Shown piece after piece: positions 7,190 through 53,505 of a DNA stretch of 55,659 bases. The stretch's first letter is position 1. Each line of letters begins with the position of its first letter. The stretch is from assembly GCA_045598785.1 (NCBI GenBank), contig JAZLMR010000087.1:1-55659 (forward strand), written 5' to 3'. The position numbers and the translations under genes are program-made. Below the pieces are notes generated by a model that saw nothing but the letters and a program-made list of their open reading frames with translations, searched no databases and had not been told where the DNA came from. This DNA comes from Kiritimatiellia bacterium. GTDB taxonomy: Bacteria > Verrucomicrobiota > Kiritimatiellia > RFP12 > UBA1067.

Positions 7190-7294
7190 ATTTCCAAACA
7201 CTACAAGAAAGTGTGGAAAGCACTACCACGACTTCCCGTCTCCGCCGACCGCGAAAACCATAATGAGAATTCGTTGCGGAAATTCTTGGCAGGG

Positions 7295-7330
7295 CGACGG
7301 CCAACGAGCGACGGCCGACGACCGACGACC
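7295..7330. repeat. Heptamer tandem repeat (CGACGGC CAACGAG CGACGGC CGACGAC CGACGAC)
   Basis: 7-bp periodicity read directly in intergenic DNA. Confidence 0.6.
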
Positions 7331-7387
7331 GCGGGCGAGTGGGAAGCGGAGCGCTAGGGCCGCTAAGAAGAAGCGGCGACCAACGAA

Positions 7388-7457
7388 TTTATCCACGGAT
7401 TTCACAGATTTTCACGGATTGAAATCTGTGTTAATCCGTGTCAATCCGTGGACAAAA
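7388..7457. repeat. Imperfect palindrome built from CAC(G/A)GATT units (three per arm)
   Basis: Left arm cacggatt/cacagatt/cacggatt; right arm aatctgtg/aatccgtg/aatccgtg. Confidence 0.75.
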
Positions 7458-7496
7458 CTCAACTACAGCGAGCCGGCCGCGCCAAATCGGTCGCGC

Positions 7497-8174
7497 TCAA
7501 ACGTCAATCTTGATGATCTTGCGAATCAGCAGCCAGCCGAGCACGATCAGCGCGAGCATCAACGCCACCGCCCCGAGCCCGATCGGACTCGTCAAAAACG
7601 GAATCATCAGACCCGGCCGCAGCATCGTCATCGCCACCCCGAGGAAAATCGGCATCAGCGTGACGATAACCCCCTGCATGCGCCCTTGCGCCGTCAGCGA
7701 CTTGACCTTACGCTGGATCTTCTGACGACCGCGGATCGTCTCCGAAATCTTGTCGAAGATCTCCGTGACATTGCCGCCCGTCTTCCGACTCACCAGAATC
7801 GCCGTCGTGACCAGCGTCAGGTCATCGGACCCGACCCGCTCCGACAACGCCTCCAGCGCATCCTCGAAACTCATGCCGATCTTGAGCTGCTGCTGCAGAA
7901 TGGCAAATTCCTCGCTCATCGGGTTCTCGCCCTGCTCGACCACCGCGTCAAAGGCCTGCGCGATCGAAAACCCCGCCCGAAGCGCATTCGACATCGTCGC
8001 CAGCGCTTCCGGCAGCTGGGCGTTGAACCGCTCCCGCCGCTGATTGTCGAGGTAGCGGGCGATCGGACTGGTGCCGCGCTGCCAGCCGGCCCGGATCCGG
8101 ATGCCGGAAGCCACCAGCGCCACCAGTCCCCCGAACGCCAGCGCCCAGAGCGAGACTATCAGCCACTCAATCAC
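7497..8174 (-). CDS. tadB: Tad pilus assembly protein TadB (T2SS-F family)
   Basis: QLPEALATMSNALRAGFSI and TGGNVTEIFDKISETIRGR motifs; TM helices; follows cpaF. Confidence 0.9.
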   Translation of the reverse strand: MIEWLIVSLWALAFGGLVALVASGIRIRAGWQRGTSPIARYLDNQRRERFNAQLPEALATMSNALRAGFSIAQAFDAVVEQGENPMSEEFAILQQQLKIGMSFEDALEALSERVGSDDLTLVTTAILVSRKTGGNVTEIFDKISETIRGRQKIQRKVKSLTAQGRMQGVIVTLMPIFLGVAMTMLRPGLMIPFLTSPIGLGAVALMLALIVLGWLLIRKIIKIDV

Positions 8175-9810
8175 TGAACATCCCCATGTCCACCTTCAGT
8201 CCGCGGCTCTTCGCCTGGTCGATCCAGGTCGGCACCGCGCCCGTCGGCTTCATCGCCCCGAGCACCCGTCCGTGCTCGTCCACTCCCGTCTGCTCAAACG
8301 CAAACAGTTCCTGCATCACGATCTGACTGCCCTCCAGCCCGGTCACCTCGGTGATGGAAGTCACCTTGCGCGAACCGTCGCTCAGCCGCGACTCGTGGAT
8401 GACGATGTCGACCGCGCTCGCAATCTGTTCGCGGATCGCCCGGCTCGGCAAATCCATGCCGCTCATCAGCACCATCGTCTCCAGGCGGGAAATGACGTCG
8501 CGCGGCGAGTTCGCGTGCACGGTCGTGAGCGAACCGTCATGGCCGGTATTCATCGCCTGCAGCATGTCCAGCGACTCGCCGCCACGGCATTCGCCGACGA
8601 TGATGCGGTCGGGTCGCATTCGCAGGCAGTTCTTGACCAGATCGCGAATCGTCACCGCCCCCTTGCCCTCGATGTTCGGCGGCCGGGCTTCGAGCCGCAC
8701 GACATGCGGCTGCTGCAGGCGGAGCTCCGCCGCGTCCTCGACGGTGACGATGCGCTCGGTTTCGGGAATGTAGCCGGAAAGCAGGTTAAGGAGCGTGGTC
8801 TTGCCCGAACCGGTGCCGCCGGCGACGATGATGTTCTTGCGCAGCTCGACACAGAGCCGCATGAAATCGGCCGCGGCCGGCGTCCAGGTGCCGAAGCGGA
8901 TGAAGTCGGCCGGCGACAGCGCGCGTTTGGAAAACTTGCGGATCGTAATCGTCGGCCCGCTCAGCGCCAGCGGCGCGATGATGGCGTTGACGCGACTGCC
9001 GTCCGCGAGCCGGGCGTCCACATACGGCTGCGACTCGTCGATACGCCGGCCAAGCGGCGCGACAATGCGCTCGATCACCGCCAGCACGCTCGCGTCGTCG
9101 GAAAACTGACAGTCCGACAGCTGCAGCTTGCCGCCGCGCTCGACATAGACCCGCTCGGGGCCGTTGACCATGATTTCCGTAACCGTTTCGTCGGCCAGCA
9201 GCTCTTCCAGCGGCCCCAGCCGAAGCGCCTCATTGAAAACGTCCTCTTCCAGCCGCAGCGGATCGATCCCCTCCGGAAGCCGCCCATTGGCGATCACCTC
9301 GTCGATGATCTGGTGTATCCGATCGCGCGCATTGTCCTCCAGCCCCTCACGGTCCACGCCCTGCAGCGTGAGCTTCTTCATGTCCATGCGCTTCAGGAGC
9401 TCGTTCTGAATCTGGGTCTGGACATTGCGCCGGAGATCGCGCAGCGGATCCGGCTCCTCCGCCGGCAGTTCCGGCTCGACCTCCGGCTCCTCCGCCCGGG
9501 GCGGCTCCTCGGCCGCCGGCGCCGCCGGATGCGGACTCACCCGCAGCATGCCCGCGCCGATCTGGACGACCTTGCCGCCGTCCAGCGGCTCGGCCCCCTG
9601 GATCACCTCGCCGTTGACCAGCGTGCCGTTGGCGCTGTGCAGGTCTTCGATGACCACCTGTCCGTCGCGAACCGTCAGGATCGCATGCCGCTCGGAAACC
9701 TCTGGATACGGGAAGCGGATATGGCAGCCTTCGCCGCGCCCGATGAGATAGGTTCCGTCAACGAGCTCGCGCTCGTCTCGGCGGCCGTCAATCAGAGTCG
9801 TAAGCACCAT
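8167..9810 (-). CDS. cpaF: Flp pilus ATPase CpaF/TadA with N-terminal FHA domain
   Basis: FHA motifs IGR, SERHA, SANGT; Walker A GGTGSGKTT; LRMRPDRIIVGECRG; AMNTGHDGSLTTVHAN. Confidence 0.93.
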   Translation of the reverse strand: MVLTTLIDGRRDERELVDGTYLIGRGEGCHIRFPYPEVSERHAILTVRDGQVVIEDLHSANGTLVNGEVIQGAEPLDGGKVVQIGAGMLRVSPHPAAPAAEEPPRAEEPEVEPELPAEEPDPLRDLRRNVQTQIQNELLKRMDMKKLTLQGVDREGLEDNARDRIHQIIDEVIANGRLPEGIDPLRLEEDVFNEALRLGPLEELLADETVTEIMVNGPERVYVERGGKLQLSDCQFSDDASVLAVIERIVAPLGRRIDESQPYVDARLADGSRVNAIIAPLALSGPTITIRKFSKRALSPADFIRFGTWTPAAADFMRLCVELRKNIIVAGGTGSGKTTLLNLLSGYIPETERIVTVEDAAELRLQQPHVVRLEARPPNIEGKGAVTIRDLVKNCLRMRPDRIIVGECRGGESLDMLQAMNTGHDGSLTTVHANSPRDVISRLETMVLMSGMDLPSRAIREQIASAVDIVIHESRLSDGSRKVTSITEVTGLEGSQIVMQELFAFEQTGVDEHGRVLGAMKPTGAVPTWIDQAKSRGLKVDMGMFSD

Positions 9811-22982: not shown

Positions 22983-24197
22983 TCAGAAGTAGGCGATTTG
23001 CGTATTCTGATAGAGGAACCACGCCAAGGCGCCGATCGCCAGACAGGCCGCGACCTGCACCAGCGCCGAAATCGCCCACAGCCACGCGGGGCCATCGCTC
23101 GCCGTCGCCGCCGGCAGCTCGGGCAGTGTCGCCACCGTCGGCATCTCGGGAATGTCCGCCAACTCCGCACCCGCACTTTCCGTCGGCGCCGGCGTCGCCG
23201 CCGTCGGCTGCGGACGCTTGATCCCGAACTTGCCTGACGGCCGAACCGCGCCGCCCGGACGGGCGATCTTCAAGGTCTTGCGCTGCGTAATCGAAGCCGT
23301 GCTCGCAGTAGCCGCCTCGGACGGCTCCGCCAGCTTAGTCTCGGCCTGCGATGCGGGAACTTCCGCTTTCGGCTGCGGCGCCAGAGGCTTCGTCGCCCCG
23401 GGAATCTCGATCGGACGCTTGATCCGAATCGTCTTCATCGGCGCGTTTTCGTTCTTGACCGGCGCGACTCCCATCGCATCCGACAGCGAAATGCGCGCGG
23501 TCTTGTGCTTGGCCGCTTCCTTCTGCGCTTCTGACATCGCCCCTTCGGCAATGATGCCCGTCTTGCGCAGAATCGCCTGCTGAGGAATCTCTTGGGTAAT
23601 GCCCTTGAGCGAATGGGTAATAGTCTTAAGCGCCTCCAGCGGCTTCGGCGCCGGCGCTGCGGGCGCGACCGGATTCAGTTCCGCCACCGGTTCGAGCTTC
23701 ACCTCGGCCGCCGCCGGCTTCAGCTCCGCCACTGCGGGCTCGGGCTTCACCTCGGCCGCCACCGGCTTCAGCTCCGCCACGCTTTCCGGATTCACTTCCG
23801 CAGGGGCTGGCGCCGCCACAGGCTGGGGCGCCGCCGCCTTCGGCTCCTCGGCCGCTTTCGGCACCACTGGCTTCGGCAACACCGGTTTCGGCAACGGCGC
23901 AGCCACCACCGTGGAACCCGGCTTGCGAATCATCGGCTTCGGCGGCAGCTTGAGCCCCGAAGTCGACAGCGTCGCGCCCGGCTTCGGCGGCAACTTGAGC
24001 CCCGCCGTCGACAGCGTCGCCCCCGGCTTCGGCGGCAGCTTGAGCCCCGGCTTCAGCACCGCCGTGCCGCCGGTGCCCGGCTTGCGGATCATCGGCTTTA
24101 AAGTCATCGTCGCCGGCTTCGGCGGCACGGCCGCGACCGGAGCGGCCGCCGGCGGTTCCGCATTCGTTACAGGAGTCATCTCAACTTCTTCTGCCAT
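22983..24197 (-). CDS. Pro/Ala/Lys-rich low-complexity protein with a C-terminal membrane anchor
   Basis: No signal peptide, internal tandem repeats, single C-terminal hydrophobic helix; follows frr. Confidence 0.7.
   Translation of the reverse strand: MAEEVEMTPVTNAEPPAAAPVAAVPPKPATMTLKPMIRKPGTGGTAVLKPGLKLPPKPGATLSTAGLKLPPKPGATLSTSGLKLPPKPMIRKPGSTVVAAPLPKPVLPKPVVPKAAEEPKAAAPQPVAAPAPAEVNPESVAELKPVAAEVKPEPAVAELKPAAAEVKLEPVAELNPVAPAAPAPKPLEALKTITHSLKGITQEIPQQAILRKTGIIAEGAMSEAQKEAAKHKTARISLSDAMGVAPVKNENAPMKTIRIKRPIEIPGATKPLAPQPKAEVPASQAETKLAEPSEAATASTASITQRKTLKIARPGGAVRPSGKFGIKRPQPTAATPAPTESAGAELADIPEMPTVATLPELPAATASDGPAWLWAISALVQVAACLAIGALAWFLYQNTQIAYF
23670..23801. repeat. Coding tandem repeat, about 45-48 bp x3 (AEVKPEPVAELKPVA-like)
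   Basis: Seen in both DNA and protein. Confidence 0.75.
23935..24048. repeat. Coding tandem repeat, 45 bp x about 2.5 (GLKLPPKPGATLST)
   Basis: ggcttcggcggca units start at 23935, 23980 and 24025. Confidence 0.85.
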
Positions 24198-25542: not shown

Positions 25543-25607
25543 ATTGCTAATTGTATCATTTAAAGGCCGGGTTTGCAAATGGCGCCGGCGGCATCGGGGG
25601 AAATGGC

Positions 25608-26528
25608 CTACTTCAAAAAGAGCACCATTCCCGTCGGTTCGGCCGGATCGCGAGGCAAGTCCTGGTTTAACACCAGCCGAAAGCCGCCGTTCGGATTGTT
25701 CGTGCTGTACGCGGGATTGCCATAATTCGCCCGATTGTCCGACTGCAAATACAACGGTTCGCTGTCATAGGAGCCACCGCGGGCAAACCGCGCCGTATAA
25801 TTCGCCTTGCTACCCACCGGATCCACGCCCTGCAGCACCCCGTTGGGTCGATCCAGACACCATTCCCAGACATTGCCGTGCATATCATAGATTCCCCAGG
25901 CGTTAGGCAGCTTTTCGCCGACCGGGTGCGTGTGATTGTCCGAGTTCTCGCCAAACCATCCCACCTTGGCCAAATCCTCCATAGTGTCACCATTGCAAAA
26001 AGCGGTGGTTGACCCGGCGCGACAGGCATATTCCCACTGCCCCTCCGTGGGCAGATCCAAACCCGGAAGCTGGGCACGGGCGCGCAGCCTGCCGACAAAG
26101 CTTTCGTCATCAACCTCGCTTGAAGTCGGCCAGGTCGCGCCTTTGTTTCTGCCGCGGATGTCATAATAGGAAAAGCGATACATCGGATAGGTATCGCCCA
26201 AACCATCAACGGCCTTGCATACGCTCAAGGCCGAGGTGCCCATCACCAGTTCGCACTGCTTCTGCGTCACTTCGAAAATCCCGACATAAAAGCCCTTGCT
26301 CAATGAATACCGCCCGAGCACATCGCTGCCGGCGGGTACGTATCGCAGCACCAGTTTAGTCGTTTTGTGCGCCTCGGTCCAGCCGCCCGCCGGCACCTCG
26401 TCCAGATAACTGACCTCATAGCGCGTCGCCGCCGCCCCCGGGGTCAGGTCGATGACGCAATATCGCCCTTTTTCCGCCATTGCCGACATGGCTGCCGCCA
26501 CCGCCAGACCCATTAGCAAACTTCTCAT
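25608..26528 (-). CDS. Secreted SUMF1/FGE-sulfatase-family domain protein
   Basis: LPTEGQWEYACRAG, PNAWGIYDMHGNVWEWC, RGGSY, GFRLV; signal peptide from MRSLLM; ends PTGMVLFLK. Confidence 0.88.
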   Translation of the reverse strand: MRSLLMGLAVAAAMSAMAEKGRYCVIDLTPGAAATRYEVSYLDEVPAGGWTEAHKTTKLVLRYVPAGSDVLGRYSLSKGFYVGIFEVTQKQCELVMGTSALSVCKAVDGLGDTYPMYRFSYYDIRGRNKGATWPTSSEVDDESFVGRLRARAQLPGLDLPTEGQWEYACRAGSTTAFCNGDTMEDLAKVGWFGENSDNHTHPVGEKLPNAWGIYDMHGNVWEWCLDRPNGVLQGVDPVGSKANYTARFARGGSYDSEPLYLQSDNRANYGNPAYSTNNPNGGFRLVLNQDLPRDPAEPTGMVLFLK

Positions 26529-26650
26529 ACCGAACTTCCCTTTCTTCCGATTTTCAGTCTGAAAAGATGCGCGAAGGCGCATCTACCGTTTTCAGACTTT
26601 GTGCATTCAATATAACAAAGTTTGAAAACGAATGCAAGCGCTCCTTTTCG

Positions 26651-26659
26651 TGGTATAAT
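26651..26659 (+). promoter_or_regulatory. Extended -10 (TGGTATAAT) for the MATE-condensation gene
   Basis: Exact motif 32 nt upstream of ATG 26692. Confidence 0.6.
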
Positions 26660-26691
26660 AACCTGCAGTTCATTTCCAACCCTTTCATCCT

Positions 26692-29058
26692 ATGACTTAT
26701 CAACCCACAGCATCCGGTCGCCTAGTTCGCTATTTGGGCGCGGCGACGGTTATGGTTTTCGCCGACTACCTGCTGATATTGACCGATTGCATAATCGCCG
26801 GACGCGTTTTGGGCGAGACGGCGCTGGGCGCAATGAACCTGCTGATGCCGATATTCTCGGCCGTCACCTTCCTGTCCTGGCTGCTGGCCTCCGGCACTTC
26901 CAACCTCTACCAGCTCGCCAGCCGCAAACGCGACGAACACGATTGTGCCAGGATCGCCACCCAAGGACTGGTAGCCTCGATACTGCTGGCGCTGGCTGTC
27001 GACGGCATCCTGTATGTCAGCTACGACGCCTACCTCGCCTTCATGGCGCCGAGCGCGGAAATCTGCCGCTATTTTCACCAATATCTGACGTGGTATTTCG
27101 TCACCCTGGCGCTGCAATCAATGGGCCTGACGCTTTTATACCTGGTCTTTGTCCGCGGCAGCCAGCTCGTCTGCATTCAGGCGTATGTAGTCCAGCTGAT
27201 CACCAACATGTTCATGTCTTACTGGCTGTGCGAACGCTTCGGCATCGCCGGAATCTCCCTCGGAACCCTGGCCTCGTTTCTCGCCTGGTTTCTGACCATC
27301 GGCCTCCTGTTGCGCAACAATCCCGCCAGGCCGCCGTTCGCCAGAACCCTGCCCAGCCTCCTGCCGCTTGTCAAGTCGATCAGGTCGGCGCTGGCCGAAT
27401 CCTCCGTCTGGCTCCTGCATGCGCTGATCTTCTTCATCATCGCGAAATACGTCCGCTACTTCTGGGACTCGGAATCACTGGCGGTCTGCGCCGTCGTCTT
27501 CTTCATCATTCGACTGACCATTTTCTTCGGCGGCATCGGCGTGGCCATGCGCCCGCTCGAATCGGCCCTGCGGAACGGCACCGTGAATCCCGCCGAAATC
27601 AGCAGAATCTTTCGCATCGTGACCGCCGCGGCGATGGCGGCGATGGCCTTTGCGGCGGCAATCTTCATCATCGCCCCGGAACCCATGATCGGCGTTTTCG
27701 GCATCGAAACCGTCGAGCTCGTCAACGGCGCCAAGTTCGCCGCGCGCGTCACGGTGGGCGGGCTGGTGCTGTGCGGACTGACGGCGCTGCTGCCGCTGTG
27801 GCGGAGAATGAAGCGGTCGCAGGTCCCCGAAGCCAGGCTCAACTATCTTCAAAACTACATCGTCAGCCGGCTCGAACCGGACTCCCGGTCGCAGATGTTC
27901 AACCTCGCGAAGCTCTTCCGCCTGCGCCGCGGCATCGACCTCAACCGGCTCTCGGCCGCACTGACCGCCGCCGGCGAAGCCCATGCCGCGCTGCGCACGG
28001 TATTTCGCCGCGACGCCGAAGGCGAGCTTGTCCAGCGGCAGGAACTGGCCGCCGGCGCCGTTCGTTGCCCGATCGTAAAAACCACCGAGGCCGAACTGCT
28101 GGGCAACCGGTCCCAGCTGGTGAAGACCTTCAGACTTGAAGGCCGGGACCTCTTCGAAGCCAAGATCTTTGACTGCGGCGACGGCATCGCCTACCTGCTC
28201 TCCAACTTTCACCATCTCATCTGCGACGGCTATTCGTTCCCCCTGATTCTCGCCGATGCCCATCGGGTCTGGAACGGCGAAACCCTGGAAGGCGACGCTT
28301 ATTACGAGGTGCTGGCCCGCCGCGAAGAGCGCGCCGCCCAGCCTATTGCCGTGGCCGGCCGAAACTTCATGCGCGAGCTGCTAAAGGACCGGTCGTTCAC
28401 CACCCTGCCGCCCGACGATTTTCACGGCAATCCCGGCTACGGCGTCATCGAGCTTCCGATTCCGCTGCCGCCGAACTTCGAGGCCGTGCTGGCCACGCGC
28501 CGCGCCACCCGGCACCATCTGTTCCTCGCCGCCGCCGCCTTAGCGCTTAAATGGCTGACCGATGCGGACGACGTGCTCATCGACTGGGTCTTTCACGGAC
28601 GGGTCTCGAAGGACGAGCTCAAGACCGTAGGCGCGTTCATGGTCGACCTGCCGCTCGTATTCGACGGAACCGAAGACCTGACCGCTTCCGACATGGTCGC
28701 GCTCGTGAAACGCGCGACCTTCAACGGCATCAAAAGCGTCAACGTGTTCCGCAATGTGGCCGACTGCAATCCCACCGGGCAGGATCGGCTGACCTTCATC
28801 TATCAGGACGAGTGGGGAGAACTGATGAGCGCCGGTCCCGTCCGCACCGACGGTCCGTTCGCCTGGATGATCGAGGATACGATTCCGCTGACGGCGCCGC
28901 GGGCCGCGACCGAAAACCCCTTCAATGTCGAAATCATGGAGCACCGGGACGCCACGCGGCTTTTCATCGAATACGACACCGGCCGCTACTCCGAGGCGAC
29001 TGCCCGCCGCTACGCCGACCAGTTCCTGCAGGCGCTCAACTGGCTACTTTCCTCCTGA
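26692..29058 (+). CDS. MATE-family transporter fused to an NRPS-type condensation domain
   Basis: N-terminal about 370 aa with MATE signatures (D-x-IIAGRVLGETALGAM, FGIAGISLGTL). C-terminal AHAALRTVF, FHHLICDGYS (HHxxxDG at 28210-28230), HGR...VGAFMVDLPL. Confidence 0.85.
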   Translation: MTYQPTASGRLVRYLGAATVMVFADYLLILTDCIIAGRVLGETALGAMNLLMPIFSAVTFLSWLLASGTSNLYQLASRKRDEHDCARIATQGLVASILLALAVDGILYVSYDAYLAFMAPSAEICRYFHQYLTWYFVTLALQSMGLTLLYLVFVRGSQLVCIQAYVVQLITNMFMSYWLCERFGIAGISLGTLASFLAWFLTIGLLLRNNPARPPFARTLPSLLPLVKSIRSALAESSVWLLHALIFFIIAKYVRYFWDSESLAVCAVVFFIIRLTIFFGGIGVAMRPLESALRNGTVNPAEISRIFRIVTAAAMAAMAFAAAIFIIAPEPMIGVFGIETVELVNGAKFAARVTVGGLVLCGLTALLPLWRRMKRSQVPEARLNYLQNYIVSRLEPDSRSQMFNLAKLFRLRRGIDLNRLSAALTAAGEAHAALRTVFRRDAEGELVQRQELAAGAVRCPIVKTTEAELLGNRSQLVKTFRLEGRDLFEAKIFDCGDGIAYLLSNFHHLICDGYSFPLILADAHRVWNGETLEGDAYYEVLARREERAAQPIAVAGRNFMRELLKDRSFTTLPPDDFHGNPGYGVIELPIPLPPNFEAVLATRRATRHHLFLAAAALALKWLTDADDVLIDWVFHGRVSKDELKTVGAFMVDLPLVFDGTEDLTASDMVALVKRATFNGIKSVNVFRNVADCNPTGQDRLTFIYQDEWGELMSAGPVRTDGPFAWMIEDTIPLTAPRAATENPFNVEIMEHRDATRLFIEYDTGRYSEATARRYADQFLQALNWLLSS

Positions 29059-29240
29059 ACGGCGCCTTTCGCCGCCGTGCTCGGCAAATTGTAATGATAG
29101 TAGTCGTCAAGATCCAGCCCGACGAGATTCGGCAGCTGCCGAAGCAGTTCCATGTCCCGGTCGCGCAGATCCCCTTCCGGCTCGGCGGCCCCGACCGCCA
29201 TCACCGCCGTCAAGGCCATTGTCAGCCACAGTTGCCTCAT
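29010..29240 (-). pseudogene. 76-aa remnant of a secreted protein (signal peptide + LPNLVGLDLDDYY fragment)
   Basis: GGAGGA SD, clear signal peptide, too short for the apparent domain, runs into the end of the convergent gene. Confidence 0.45.
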
Positions 29241-29256
29241 ACTTCCTCCTTTGCCG

Positions 29257-29943
29257 TTAAAACGCGATCGGCGTGATGCCGTGCGTGCGCAAATAGTCGT
29301 TACCAATCCGAAAACAATTGCTCCCGAAGAAGCCGCGCCGCGCCGAAAGCGGCGAAGGATGCGCACACTCGATCACGCAATGCCGTTGACGGTCGATAAA
29401 CGCCCCCTTGCGCTGCGCCTGCGCCCCCCACAAGACGAAGACCAGATGCTCACGCGTTGCGTCCAGATAACGAATCACCGCGTCCGTAAACTGCTCCCAG
29501 CCGCGTCCGCGATGCGAAAGCGGCTGGCCCGCCGCCACGGTCAGCGTGGCATTCAAAAGCAGCACGCCCTGCCGCGCCCATTCGCGCAAGTCCGGAATCC
29601 GCACCTCGCTGCGCTTGAGCTTCGCCGCGTCTGCGCCCGTCGCCTCCGCCTGCAGTTCCTTGGCGATGTTCACCAGCGACGGCGGCACCTTGATTCCCGG
29701 CGGCACGTAAAACGCCAGCCCCTGCGCCTCGCCCGGCTCGTGATAGGGGTCCTGCCCGAGAATCACCAGCTTGACCTCGGTCGGCGCCAGCTGCTCCAGG
29801 GCCGCGAACACCAGTTCCCGCGGCGGATAGACGGTTTCCTCCTTATAGGCAGCCTCGACAAAGGCGGAAAGTCGCGCAAAATACGCCTGAGCGCTTTCTT
29901 TCGCCCACAGGGCCTGCCAACCGGGATTTGCGAGGTGCAACAT
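29257..29943 (-). CDS. ung: Uracil-DNA glycosylase (family 1)
   Basis: ILGQDPYH, PPSLVNI, QGVLLLN, HPSPLSA. Confidence 0.97.
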   Translation of the reverse strand: MLHLANPGWQALWAKESAQAYFARLSAFVEAAYKEETVYPPRELVFAALEQLAPTEVKLVILGQDPYHEPGEAQGLAFYVPPGIKVPPSLVNIAKELQAEATGADAAKLKRSEVRIPDLREWARQGVLLLNATLTVAAGQPLSHRGRGWEQFTDAVIRYLDATREHLVFVLWGAQAQRKGAFIDRQRHCVIECAHPSPLSARRGFFGSNCFRIGNDYLRTHGITPIAF

Positions 29944-33270: not shown

Positions 33271-33896
33271 CGCTGCTCCTCCGCCTCGGCCAGAAACACG
33301 GAAACGGGGCGCGAGGCCGTCAGCGTCACCCGCGCCGCCTCCGCGCGATTCAAGGTCGCGCAGTAAAGACTGCCGAACTTCATGTCGTCCAGCGGCCACT
33401 CCAACCCCGTCGAGGTCATGCGCGTCTGCGGGTCCGGCGCAAAGATCGAAACGGCCGCACCCCGGCGCACCCGCAGACTCCGCCGGCCCGAAACCGGCAC
33501 GAAGCGCCCGTAGTCGGTCACGATCTCGATCCCGTCGGCAAGCGCGCGAAAGACATTGCCGAGCGTATGATCCTCGCGCTTCCCGGTCGCGCCGAGGATC
33601 ACCAGCTTGCGCCACCCGCGTTCACGGCAGAGGCGAATCGCCTTGGCGAGATCGTTAGTCTCCTGTTCGTCCACGCGAACGACCTCGGCGGTCGCGCGTT
33701 TCCGACCGGGCAGCCGCAAGCTGTCCAAGTCGCCGACAACAACTTCCGGCCAACGGCGGAACCGACGTCGATAGGCATCTGCCGCCCCATCACAGCCCAC
33801 CACCCGCCTGGCCGATGTCAGGAGCCGCCAGGCCTTCCCGCCCGGCCGCGGAAAATCCCCGTTGGCCAAGATGACGGTAAGCGACCGGCCGTTCAT
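33267..33896 (-). CDS. thiN: Thiamine diphosphokinase
   Basis: ILANG, CDGAAD, VGDLDS, QETNDLAKA, GATGKREDHTLGN. Confidence 0.93.
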   Translation of the reverse strand: MNGRSLTVILANGDFPRPGGKAWRLLTSARRVVGCDGAADAYRRRFRRWPEVVVGDLDSLRLPGRKRATAEVVRVDEQETNDLAKAIRLCRERGWRKLVILGATGKREDHTLGNVFRALADGIEIVTDYGRFVPVSGRRSLRVRRGAAVSIFAPDPQTRMTSTGLEWPLDDMKFGSLYCATLNRAEAARVTLTASRPVSVFLAEAEEQR

Positions 33897-34942
33897 TTGA
33901 CCAAACCCCATTCCCGGAGCGGTTCCAACGGCAGCCCCATGATGTTTTCATAACTGCCCGTATAGCTCTCGACGATCAAGTCGCCGGACTCGTCAATGTC
34001 ATAGGCGCCGGCGCGGTCGGTGGGCCGCACCCGCGCGACATATTCGTCGATCAGCTCCGCGCTCAGCGGACGAAACTTCACTTCCGACCTGACGACTTTC
34101 ACTTCCCCGTTATAGGCGACGCCGGTAAAGACCGTGTGCACATTGCCGCTCAGTTCGCGCAAGAACGCCTTCGCCTCCTCAAGATCCTTGGGCTTTCCGT
34201 AAATCCGGTTGTTGAACCACACGATGGTATCGGCCGAAAGCGCCCGCGGCGCCACCCGCCCCTTGCTGAGCGCATTCTCCCGCACCGTGCGCTCGGGGTC
34301 TTCAGGATAGCACACTTCCGCCGCGTCGCTTTTCACGACGGCGAAATCAACGCCATGCTCCGCGAGAATCTTCGCCCGCCGCGGACTGCCGCTCGCCAAG
34401 GTCAGGAAACGCACCGGGCCCTCGCGCAGCACCGTCAGCCGCCCGTCATCCAACTTCACCACCGTCGAGGCGACGCCGCCCGACGAGATGCCGTCATCGA
34501 CAATCAGATCCGCCGCCAGCCCCAGCGCCGCCAGCGCCGCCGGCGCATCGGTCGCGGCGCGTTGCCCGGAAAGATTGGCGCTGGTAACGCGCAGCGCCCC
34601 GCCGCAAGCAGCCAGCAGCCGCCGCGTCCATTCATGAGCCGGCACTCGCACGCCTTCGCCCTGGGCCACCACCGTCAGCGCCCCCGGCCAATACCGCCTG
34701 CCCAACTCGGCGGCCGCCTCGCCGATAAATGGCACCGCGCCTTGCGCGTCGCTCGCCAGCAGCGCAATCGGCTTGTTCAAGTCCCGCGCCTTGGCGGAAT
34801 AAAGCCGGGCGACCGCCGCCGGAAATTTCGGGTGAGCCGCGAGCCCGTAGACCGTATCCGTCGGAATCACGGCGATGCCGCCGTGCATCAGCACCTCGGT
34901 CGCCGTCTTCAGCCCGTCATCCGTCGCCGCCACCATTCTCAT
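33893..34942 (-). CDS. Fusion of threonylcarbamoyl-AMP synthase (TsaC/YrdC) and Maf nucleotide pyrophosphatase
   Basis: IPTDTVYGL, KAR...KPI, WPGALT, TSANLSG (TsaC) joined in frame to LASGSPRR, SADTIV, LSGNVH, AGAY, NIMGLP (Maf). Start at 34942 overlaps the rsmE stop. Confidence 0.9.
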   Translation of the reverse strand: MRMVAATDDGLKTATEVLMHGGIAVIPTDTVYGLAAHPKFPAAVARLYSAKARDLNKPIALLASDAQGAVPFIGEAAAELGRRYWPGALTVVAQGEGVRVPAHEWTRRLLAACGGALRVTSANLSGQRAATDAPAALAALGLAADLIVDDGISSGGVASTVVKLDDGRLTVLREGPVRFLTLASGSPRRAKILAEHGVDFAVVKSDAAEVCYPEDPERTVRENALSKGRVAPRALSADTIVWFNNRIYGKPKDLEEAKAFLRELSGNVHTVFTGVAYNGEVKVVRSEVKFRPLSAELIDEYVARVRPTDRAGAYDIDESGDLIVESYTGSYENIMGLPLEPLREWGLVK

Positions 34943-35682
34943 TGGCAAAAATCCTTCATCAGCTGCGCCAGCAAGGCCACCGTCGCCGTATCCGTCCGCA
35001 AAATCCGCGCTCCGAGCGAATAGCGCAAAAAGCCCTGCGCCGCCAAAAGCCCGACCTCCTCGTCGGTCCAGCCGCCCTCGGGGCCGATGGCCAGCAGCAG
35101 ACGCGCCCCCGCCCGCGCCGATGCCGAGCTTTTGCCGCCATACGGATGTGCGACGATTCGATGCGAATCGGGGAAAAGCGCCGACAGCTCCTCGCGCACG
35201 AACTTGCGGAAATTCCGCCGCGTCTCCAGCTGCGGCAAAGTCGTCGACACGCCGCCCTGCATCAGCCCGTCCACCAGGAGCGGACGATAATTTTCCGGCC
35301 TTAAGAGCGTTGCGCCCCAAAAGTCCTTCTCGACCTTCTTGGCCCCGACCAGAAAAATCCGCCCGACGCCCAAAGTCGCAAGTTGCGGCAACAGCCGCTT
35401 CATCACCCGCGGCCGCGGCGGCGCCAAGATGAGGTCCGCCCAAGTCGGCAGCGCCGTTTCCGAATGCCGGCAGCGAACCGTTATCTTGGTCGTGCCCTCC
35501 GCCGACTCCGGCGCCGTGATTGCCAGGATTTCGCTCGTGCCGATTCGCCCGCCGATTTCCCCAGTCTTGAGAATTTGCCCGACCTCGCCGTGCAACACCT
35601 TCAACACATGCTCCGCGCGATCGCCGCCAAACTCGACAAGGTCCGCGTGGATTTCCGACGAATCGAACAGAATCCGATTCAT
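34939..35682 (-). CDS. rsmE: 16S rRNA m3U1498 methyltransferase
   Basis: HVLKVL, IGPEGGWT, SLGARILRTDTA. Confidence 0.92.
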   Translation of the reverse strand: MNRILFDSSEIHADLVEFGGDRAEHVLKVLHGEVGQILKTGEIGGRIGTSEILAITAPESAEGTTKITVRCRHSETALPTWADLILAPPRPRVMKRLLPQLATLGVGRIFLVGAKKVEKDFWGATLLRPENYRPLLVDGLMQGGVSTTLPQLETRRNFRKFVREELSALFPDSHRIVAHPYGGKSSASARAGARLLLAIGPEGGWTDEEVGLLAAQGFLRYSLGARILRTDTATVALLAQLMKDFCQ

Positions 35683-52725: not shown

Positions 52726-52754
52726 AAAAAGGCGGAGCCGTGCGGCCCCGCCTT
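52726..52754 (-). terminator. Rho-independent terminator of the ribosomal protein operon
   Basis: Minus strand AAGGCGGGGCCGCACGGCTCCGCC-TTTTT just after the rplI stop. Confidence 0.8.
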
Positions 52755-52787
52755 CGGTTGCGACCTTCAGTCGCCTGCGCCCCGGGC

Positions 52788-53255
52788 TCAGGCCTGCGGC
52801 GCCTCCTCGTCAAGAATCGTGATCTTGAACGCCACGATGACCCCGTGACCGAGATCGATCTTGGGCTCGTACACGCCGACTTCGCGCAGCGCATCGTCGA
52901 GCTCCAGCTGCGAACGCTCGAGCTTAACCCCGCGGTTGGCTTCGATCGCGGCGAGAATATCGCTGATGCCCACCGAACCATAGAGCTTCTTGCCGTCCGT
53001 CGTGTGCGCGGAGACCGTGAGCTCGAGCTTCTCGAGCTTCTTGGCGAGCTCCAGCGCCGCCTTCTTCTCTTCGGCGGCGCGCGCCGCGCGCTCGGCCTCG
53101 AGCTTTTTCAGCCGACGCTTGGCCGCTTCCGTGGCCACCGCGGCGAGTCCCTTCGGGAAGAGGCAGTTGCGGGCATAGCCGGGGGCGACCTTGACGATCT
53201 CGCCGGCCTTGCCGAGCTTCTTCACGTTATCCATGAGCATGACTTCGATCTGCAT
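52788..53255 (-). CDS. rplI: 50S ribosomal protein bL9
   Basis: LGKAGEIVKVAPGYARN, KLYGSV. Confidence 0.97.
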   Translation of the reverse strand: MQIEVMLMDNVKKLGKAGEIVKVAPGYARNCLFPKGLAAVATEAAKRRLKKLEAERAARAAEEKKAALELAKKLEKLELTVSAHTTDGKKLYGSVGISDILAAIEANRGVKLERSQLELDDALREVGVYEPKIDLGHGVIVAFKITILDEEAPQA

Positions 53256-53274
53256 AAGATGTTCTCCTTTCAGA

Positions 53275-53505
53275 TTAAGCCATGAGGCCCATGTTGCGGG
53301 CGCGCTTGACACCCTGACGGATCTGGCGCTGCTGAGCGCTGGTCACGCCGGTGATGCGCGCGGGCAGGATCTTGCCGTAGTCCGTGATGTAGTACTTGAG
53401 GGTTTCAATGTCGTTCACGTCGATCTGATCGGTCGGACGGAGCGGCGGACGCTTACGGGCGGCGAATTCCTCGCCAGCCGAGCTATTGGATTTCTTGAAA
53501 GCCAT
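53275..53505 (-). CDS. rpsR: 30S ribosomal protein bS18
   Basis: GKILPARITG...QRQIRQGVKRAR. Confidence 0.96.
   Translation of the reverse strand: MAFKKSNSSAGEEFAARKRPPLRPTDQIDVNDIETLKYYITDYGKILPARITGVTSAQQRQIRQGVKRARNMGLMA

Follow-up and report, generated by a model that had tools for sequence, protein, structure and literature searches.

Condensation (C) domains of nonribosomal peptide synthetases (NRPSs) are familiar from two settings, as components of assembly lines and as soluble enzymes that stand alone. Here we describe a gene in which such a domain is joined to a transporter-derived membrane domain. It was found in contig JAZLMR010000087.1 of a Kiritimatiellia bacterium (assembly GCA_045598785.1), a stretch of 55,659 nucleotides that was analysed as a whole and is hereafter called the window. 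An uninterrupted open reading frame (ORF) of 788 aa, located at 26692..29058 on the plus strand, encodes a MATE-derived membrane domain followed by a C domain. By analogy, the closest characterised chemistry appears to be that of OaaC, a free-standing C domain of gut Clostridia that couples fatty acids bound to an acyl carrier protein (ACP) to free amines. According to the accessible part of the report, OaaC is soluble and homodimeric and is encoded beside its own adenylation (A) and ACP genes, and most members of the OaaC/FAA clade carry the motif (D/H)HxxxD(S/A), with G at its end in only 17% (PMC13310621). The OaaC pathway and the fusion both belong to gut anaerobes in which a C domain is found apart from any assembly line. 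OaaC receives its acyl donor from a separate ligase, and the ligase and ACP genes of the window's genome could fill the roles of OaaA and OaaACP. In contrast to OaaC, the fusion is predicted to be membrane-bound and has no adjoining A or ACP gene, and its family shows an invariant HHxxxDG, a motif end that is allowed in the OaaC clade but atypical there. The same part of that report contains no mention of a membrane or MATE link (PMC13310621), and a PDB profile search with the C domain returned no OaaC-named chain even at E <= 10, the presence of entry 12KH in the searched copy being uncertain.

A second system shares the design logic of the fusion. MprF, the aminoacyl-phosphatidylglycerol synthase/flippase, is described in the accessible parts of three reports as consisting of an N-terminal polytopic translocating domain and a C-terminal cytoplasmic acyl/aminoacyl-transferase, which modifies a substrate at the inner face before its outward move (PMC13534887, PMC11980842, PMC4324311). 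However, its membrane domain is unrelated, its synthase domain is a different one fed by aminoacyl-tRNA, and no homology to the fusion exists; a Pfam scan found neither the flippase nor the synthase domain of MprF in the window protein. For the membrane half, the closest structure-linked sequence matches are DinF-type MATEs (PfMATE, 3vvn; Bacillus halodurans DinF, 4lz6/5c6o), which have 12 transmembrane (TM) helices compared to the 10 of the window protein and are not fused to an enzyme. Both domain families are known, and their fusion is apparently undescribed: neither a description of a MATE-condensation fusion nor a published characterisation was found in the literature, and the architecture does not appear to be one that is already common and characterised.

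The features of the gene are the following:

26692..29058, plus strand: whole ORF (ORF listing, Pfam, NCBIfam)
26722..27792, plus strand: MATE domain of the DinF subfamily, residues 11-367, with 10 predicted TM helices and without TM11-12 (Pfam, profiles, hydropathy, alignment)
27793..27822, plus strand: short basic linker LWRRMKRSQV, residues 368-377, leading from TM10 to the C domain (alignment with long relatives)
27823..29055, plus strand: NRPS-type C domain, residues 378-788 (Pfam, phmmer, profile matches)
27838-27858, plus strand: C-domain core motif, C1-like
27982-28005, plus strand: C-domain core motif C2
28207..28239, plus strand: catalytic motif FHHLICDGYSF, residues 506-516 (read directly)
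28210-28230, plus strand: HHxxxDG within the catalytic motif, residues 507-513
28300-28326, plus strand: C-domain core motif, C4-like
28627-28656, plus strand: C-domain core motif C5
28798-28824, plus strand: C-domain core motif C6
28912-28935, plus strand: C-domain core motif, C7-like

The names C1 to C7 follow the usage of the NRPS literature. The start codon at 26692 is supported by the homologues, whose alignments begin near residue 10 and cover 97-99% of the query. MatE (PF01554; E 7.6e-10; 39.1 bits against a cut-off of 24.9; best stretch residues 19-178) and Condensation (PF00668; E 1.1e-35; 123.7 bits against 30.6; residues 383-675) were the sole domains detected in the protein by the Pfam and NCBIfam scans. 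The NCBIfam MATE models align over residues 20-366, with scores far under their cut-offs (TIGR00797, 26.7 vs 147.4 bits; PRK09575, 46 vs 445). A previous reading of this DNA made from the letters alone (the sequence-only reading) had proposed a MATE transporter fused to a full C domain with an intact HHxxxDG, and this proposal is borne out by the two Pfam domains above cut-off and by the presence of FHHLICDG.

The C half is predicted to be a whole NRPS-type C domain. Its phmmer alignment with the TycC PCP-C structure 2jgp spans positions 32-410 of the 418-residue query, and further profile matches were obtained with BacC, PvdL and TycC. Residues F506, H507, H508, L509, C511, D512 and G513 do not vary among the 18 family members that were aligned, and the catalytic motif is likewise kept in four of four genome-derived copies.

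In the membrane half, helices were predicted by hydropathy at residues 11-35, 50-68, 85-110, 136-154, 155-172, 188-206, 233-254, 257-282, 303-327 and 349-367, i.e. ten rather than the 12 TM helices in two six-helix lobes by which a MATE is recognised. Alignment located TM11-12 in the long relatives described below and in a paralogue, and showed them to be absent from the window protein; the second lobe is thus shortened, as had been suspected, and an adjoining middle domain of about 110 aa is missing as well when compared with the long relatives. A profile that included the paralogues matched best with PfMATE (3vvn/6hfb, E ~3e-16) and B. halodurans DinF (5c6o/4lz6), the E values ranging from 3e-16 to 1e-13, and on the basis of these matches the membrane half is assigned to the DinF subfamily. 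Since the predicted inside loops carry 16 Lys and Arg residues and the outside loops 5, and given the homology to MATEs, both ends of the protein, and hence the C domain, are predicted to lie in the cytoplasm. Several intramembrane polar or charged residues, among them D25, N172, K252, R274 and R352, are at least 94% conserved, and this conservation of buried charged residues exceeds what a plain anchor would need. An acidic residue of TM1 lies within a ...TDCIIAGRVLG... motif and is a putative counterpart of Asp41 of PfMATE.

The fusion represents a conserved family and not an accident of assembly. A homologue search over 5.8 billion proteins, in which 8,000 candidates were scored, gave 87 matches at E <= 0.001. 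For the count of architectures, matches below 500 bits or with fewer than 380 profile positions were left out (the fragments P0089 and P0090, and P0069, which is MATE-only), and 69 protein clusters with the C domain of the family remained. Fifty-five of these have the 10-TM architecture of the window protein (762-812 aa), six are long forms (955-973 aa) with 12 TM helices, an extra middle domain and the C domain, and eight have two TM helices or none. An automatic ESM Atlas cluster labelled Condensation/MatE counts 101 members. The 18 aligned members are 49-72% identical to the window protein, with about 170 further invariant columns in the C domain beside HHxxxDG; mean pairwise identity amounts to 0.51 in the MATE half and 0.68 in the C half. 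Compared with the copies L011, L012 and L013, the ratio of nonsynonymous to synonymous substitution rates (dN/dS) is 0.37, 0.34 and 0.48 for the MATE part and 0.19, 0.24 and 0.23 for the C domain, from which it follows that purifying selection acts on both halves, less strictly on the membrane half. The fusion is therefore neither unique to this assembly, as the same form is found in 55 clusters and in three further genomes, nor under relaxed selection.

The window form corresponds to the long form minus about 185 residues, which comprise TM11, TM12 and the cytoplasmic middle domain of about 110 aa, characterised by an “RDDG...AAGFNRN” signature; in the alignment, the long relatives carry these residues at the position of the linker. 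It had been suggested earlier that a deletion joined two genes of a small NRPS cluster. As a recent event such a fusion finds no support: the window form does look like a shortened long form, but the family is old and conserved, and none of the five genomic contexts examined shows an NRPS cluster. Further erosion of the membrane half was found in other relatives: P0068 retains approximately TM9-10 and P0061 retains TM1 and TM10, P0063-66 retain the basic linker alone, and soluble forms are represented by P0067, P0088 and L034, a copy taken from a genome. The C domains of these relatives are still 66-78% identical to that of the window protein. In a C-domain tree obtained by a quick IQ-TREE search, the fusion-family C domains form one clade with a Shimodaira-Hasegawa-like approximate likelihood ratio test (SH-aLRT) support of 100. 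The reduced forms are scattered over this tree and require eight changes, at least four of which are unavoidable given the well-supported branches. Three changes are required for the long forms, one of which (P0059) nests beside the subclade of the window protein, so that the tree is compatible with either the long or the short form as the ancestral one.

With regard to the origin of the C domain, a search of its profile against 1.84 billion cluster representatives returned only its own family, followed by giant NRPSs whose scores were summed over many domains. When single domains were scored against the C profile of the family, the fusion family reached 575-845 bits. The terminal C domain of a group of ~995-aa proteins with the order adenylation-carrier-condensation (A-T-C) scored 107-167 bits, and the best C domain of multimodular NRPSs at most 114 bits, mostly 35-95. 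One of these A-T-C proteins is encoded in a genome that also carries the fusion (G222):

L037:216-3197 (G222 contig C75), minus strand: A-T-C gene, relatives P0236-P0355

This protein aligns end to end with the window C domain (25% identity, E 1e-36), and the two share the HHxxxDG, YY..L..RE and (H/N)GR motifs. In the tree, both the A-T-C clade and the fusion family have an SH-aLRT support of 100, and a very long branch (3.2 + 3.9 changes per column) separates them. Because per-domain score, pairwise alignment and tree agree, the terminal C domains of A-T-C synthetases appear to be the closest relatives of the fusion C domain. Like the fusion, the A-T-C synthetase of G222 is encoded by a stand-alone gene; the A-T-C synthetases differ from the fusion by having their own A and carrier domains in cis and no membrane domain, while the window protein lacks A and carrier domains.

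The A-T-C proteins have about 993-996 aa and come from gut and rumen Clostridia and from Kiritimatiellia. A dedicated search gave 1,002 matches at E <= 0.001 among 7,999 scored candidates; the few source names available were Ruminococcus, Lachnospiraceae and other Clostridia metagenome-assembled genomes (MAGs), and the annotation was “AMP-binding protein” only. No NCBIfam equivalog was found for this family, which is large and, as far as the literature shows, apparently uncharacterised. The A-T-C gene of G222 has the GC content at third codon positions (GC3) of its host genome and stands alone among housekeeping genes. In LgrA an Asp binds the alpha-amino group; the aligned position in the A domain of the G222 protein is not an Asp, and this absence hints that the donors of the A-T-C clade are acyl rather than aminoacyl.

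Candidate donors for the fusion were searched in the genome of the window (G000; 2.06 Mb, 84.7% complete). The fusion gene is its only Condensation match. All seven AMP-binding and both PP-binding matches are located on other contigs, which agrees with the earlier remark that the window holds no A or carrier domain, and no A-T module or didomain was found among the Pfam matches of this incomplete assembly. On contig C100, a canonical AcpP gene is located two genes downstream of a gene for a 488-aa AMP ligase. A further set of candidates was found on contig C69:

G000 contig C69:406-3834 (L020): three consecutive genes, for a 560-aa acyl-AMP/CoA ligase, a 304-aa D-2-hydroxyacid dehydrogenase and a tandem ACP of 133 aa

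With 28.8 bits, the tandem ACP exceeds the PP-binding cut-off of 20.8. It is present in three of three other fusion genomes, yet 23 of 24 relatives from the genus have it too; it is thus available as a candidate donor and is not specific. The ligase-dehydrogenase-tandem ACP row is in itself a core locus of the genus.

The distribution of the fusion gene is patchy. Genomes of three GTDB species carry it, namely a Kiritimatiellia MAG, the rumen genome RUG11823 and the “Verrucomicrobia” genome UBA1727. In a class-wide draw of 201 genomes, in which the genome of the window was the only member of its own genus, the fusion was found only in that genome, and three other matches were weak and covered the MATE part only. 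Within the genus, it was present in six of 101 sampled genomes, none of which is among the 25 with a completeness of 90% or more. A search for related loci among metagenome contigs gave one 2.2-kb fragment. The gene is flanked in the window by an FGE-sulfatase-like gene and ung, in L011 and L012 by a chromate transporter gene, in L013 by a GFO/IDH oxidoreductase gene and in L034 by lepA; in none of these five contexts does an NRPS, A or ACP gene adjoin the fusion. Its GC content and GC3 are those of the neighbouring housekeeping genes frr and pyrH. The frr-pyrH pair is kept in 59 of 61 genus genomes and the synteny match stops at pyrH in all relatives; beyond pyrH, the two closest relatives show no FGE gene, fusion, ung or GH42-like gene and no clean insertion boundary. 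Because of its presence in six of 101 genomes and its varying neighbours, the fusion gene is regarded as a sporadic, self-contained accessory gene.

The reading that we favour, and to which we give an even chance of being correct, is that of a membrane-tethered acyltransferase which would draw on a thioester donor provided in trans to acylate a free acceptor, the MATE half handling either the acceptor or the product. In such an enzyme, the 10-TM DinF-type domain would keep the predicted-intact C domain at the cytoplasmic side of the inner membrane. This C domain would come from the same stock as the chain-releasing terminal C domains of the single-module A-T-C synthetases of gut anaerobes, which most plausibly pass a thioester-bound acyl group to a free nucleophile and not to a carrier-bound one. 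Since the A and T parts are absent from the fusion, the donor would have to be supplied in trans, either as acyl-ACP (on AcpP or on the tandem ACP encoded beside the acyl-AMP ligase) or as acyl-CoA. Probable acceptors would be small amines or alcohols of amphiphilic nature, or lipid head groups, located at the membrane, and the MATE half would probably deliver the acceptor or remove the acylated product, a “modify then translocate” scheme like that of MprF. A bolder version, which we regard as rather doubtful, is a one-gene make-and-export system, in which a fatty acyl group on the ACP of the organism itself (diet- or host-derived and loaded through the ligase-ACP locus) would be joined to a free amine to give a lipid-like amide that the MATE half expels.

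Several observations weigh against the tethered acyltransferase. Its MATE half is without TM11-12. The membrane half has been lost or cut down repeatedly, at least four times independently, as follows from the scattering of the reduced forms in the C-domain tree, and as the C domain stays 66-78% identical when this happens, transport cannot be essential to the job of the C domain. The neighbours differ in four of the five contexts, and no donor-supplying partner is linked to the gene. The C69 ligase-ACP locus was rejected as a specific partner, being present in 23 of 24 genus relatives compared to six of 101 genomes for the fusion. With an A-T-C query, an NRPS-type A-T gene was found to be absent in four of the six fusion genomes (G000, G259, G267 and G291), all six being incomplete MAGs. 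Finally, the pairing of the same scaffold with a second acyltransferase, described below, depends on a GNAT assignment that falls below threshold. Acylation followed by export, as suggested in the sequence-only reading, is still the best guess, but its export part is weakened by the finding that relatives have shed the MATE half several times.

This repeated loss makes a serious rival of the explanation that the MATE remnant no longer transports anything and only tethers the C domain, which would then acylate a membrane lipid or a lipid-linked precursor of the cell envelope. The loss of TM11-12, the faster evolution of the MATE half (identity of 0.51 compared to 0.68) and the graded series of relatives scattered in the tree, from those with two TM helices (P0061, P0068) through those with a vestigial linker (P0063-66) to the soluble ones (P0067, P0088, L034), are all consistent with an anchor. 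On the other hand, the dN/dS of the MATE part is still 0.34-0.48, the buried charged residues are conserved, 55 of the 69 clusters keep all 10 TM helices, and the fully soluble forms speak against an obligatory membrane substrate. We consider an anchor possible, but less probable than the acyltransferase with a working MATE half.

The modular use of the scaffold bears on another explanation, detoxification, in which an efflux pump and a drug-modifying acyltransferase would together inactivate and expel a toxic amine or alcohol with the help of acyl-CoA. The MATE plus middle-domain scaffold is joined to the C domain in the long forms (e.g. P0051 and P0059) and also stands alone, for instance in P0070 and in a paralogue in the genome of the window:

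G000 contig C38:14526-16205 (L018:1456-3135), plus strand: 559-aa protein, 12-TM MATE that ends in a cytoplasmic domain (about 110 aa, “RDDG...GFNRN”)

In P0074-P0085, the scaffold is joined to a different C-terminal domain of about 230 aa, for which six of 10 members gave a weak match to the GNAT family Acetyltransf_1 (best E 0.0069, under the Pfam threshold), so that it can only tentatively be called GNAT-like. One pump scaffold would thus be paired with two different acyltransferase-type domains, which speaks for a detoxifying unit, as do the sporadic accessory spread (six of 101 genomes), the single-gene unit in varying contexts and the closeness of the MATE domain to multidrug-type DinF/PfMATE. 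The C domain is also predicted to have the chloramphenicol-acetyltransferase-like fold, and paralogues bear a GNAT-like domain. Yet the C domain is NRPS-type and sister to the A-T-C synthetases rather than to chloramphenicol-acetyltransferase-like enzymes, and the fusion is not seen to be flanked by genes for mobile elements or resistance. The PADLOC search for defence systems returned no match. To our knowledge, no resistance determinant combining an efflux pump and a C domain has been reported, and we judge detoxification to be unlikely.

Still less probable is a trans-acting release subunit, i.e. a fused C domain that would dock with an A-T protein or larger NRPS encoded elsewhere and off-load its product at the exporter. 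Two fusion genomes do carry NRPS-type genes, G222 with the A-T-C gene and a 2457-aa ORF, and G285 with ORFs of 807 aa and 1358 aa, and at 84.7% completeness the partner could be missing from the assembly of the window's genome. However, the four genomes without an NRPS A-T gene include that of the window, where the single Condensation match is not accompanied by an A-T didomain; an NRPS gene never adjoins the fusion; and among proteins longer than 1380 aa no NRPS with the MATE region turned up, which is weak evidence. That the fusion is decaying or non-functional, a pseudogene in the making or an artefact of annotation or assembly, could be suspected from the truncated transporter lobe, the patchy distribution and its absence from the 25 most complete genomes, but is highly improbable and already contradicted by conservation, given the intact frame of 788 codons, the same form in 55 clusters and three other genomes, the purifying selection on both halves, and a GC content and GC3 that match those of the neighbours.

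Upstream of the fusion gene, the following element was read:

26650..26658, plus strand: TGGTATAAT, a string resembling an extended -10 element, within the 109 nt that separate the gene from the divergently oriented FGE-sulfatase-like gene (read directly)

The string stands 34 nt upstream of the ATG. The earlier proposal that the gene has its own promoter thus keeps a candidate element, while a scan for the two-hexamer -35/-10 consensus over 26400-29400 gave no site. The public sequencing runs that contain parts of the stretch are only DNA runs, from animal faeces or gut metagenomes (shares of 0.05-0.47), and the run search gave no RNA run that contains it. The gene had also been called the only intact one on the plus strand, and this is roughly right: five other plus-strand ORFs that were tested have no Pfam match, whereas three overlapping minus-strand frames do, and two plus-strand ORFs (7263-8174 and 52740-53282) are left as candidates.

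Some further observations concern the rest of the window. In the comparison of 25579-26691 with L056 and L057, the shared synteny ends exactly at the end of pyrH. On the minus strand, 22983-24197 encodes an extremely Pro/Ala/Lys-rich protein of 404 aa with repeated “LKLPPKPGATLS” and “AELKPxAAEVKPEP” units, a C-terminal TM helix and no Pfam match; 33893-35443 (minus) is a single 516-aa ORF combining Sua5/YciO/YrdC (t6A synthesis) with Maf (nucleotide pyrophosphatase); and at 8167-9810 (minus) an FHA domain is joined to a type II/IV secretion ATPase (T2SSE).

A C domain welded to a transporter would reveal a new way in which thiotemplate chemistry is linked to export or to substrates in the membrane. 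The natural deletion series of the family (12 TM, 10 TM, 2 TM, soluble) is well suited for testing what the membrane half contributes, and a one-gene system is easy to express and to assay. Since fatty-acid amides produced by stand-alone C enzymes of gut Clostridia target G-protein-coupled receptors of the host, according to the accessible part of the report (PMC13310621), the fusion family and the A-T-C family are both candidates for unrecognised producers of small molecules in the gut. If the bolder make-and-export version is true, the fusion would be the first example of an NRPS condensation domain that forms part of a transporter and would provide gut Kiritimatiellia with a one-gene route to host-active signals of the fatty-acid-amide type, and the A-T-C family of gut Clostridia would represent a second, unrecognised route to related products.

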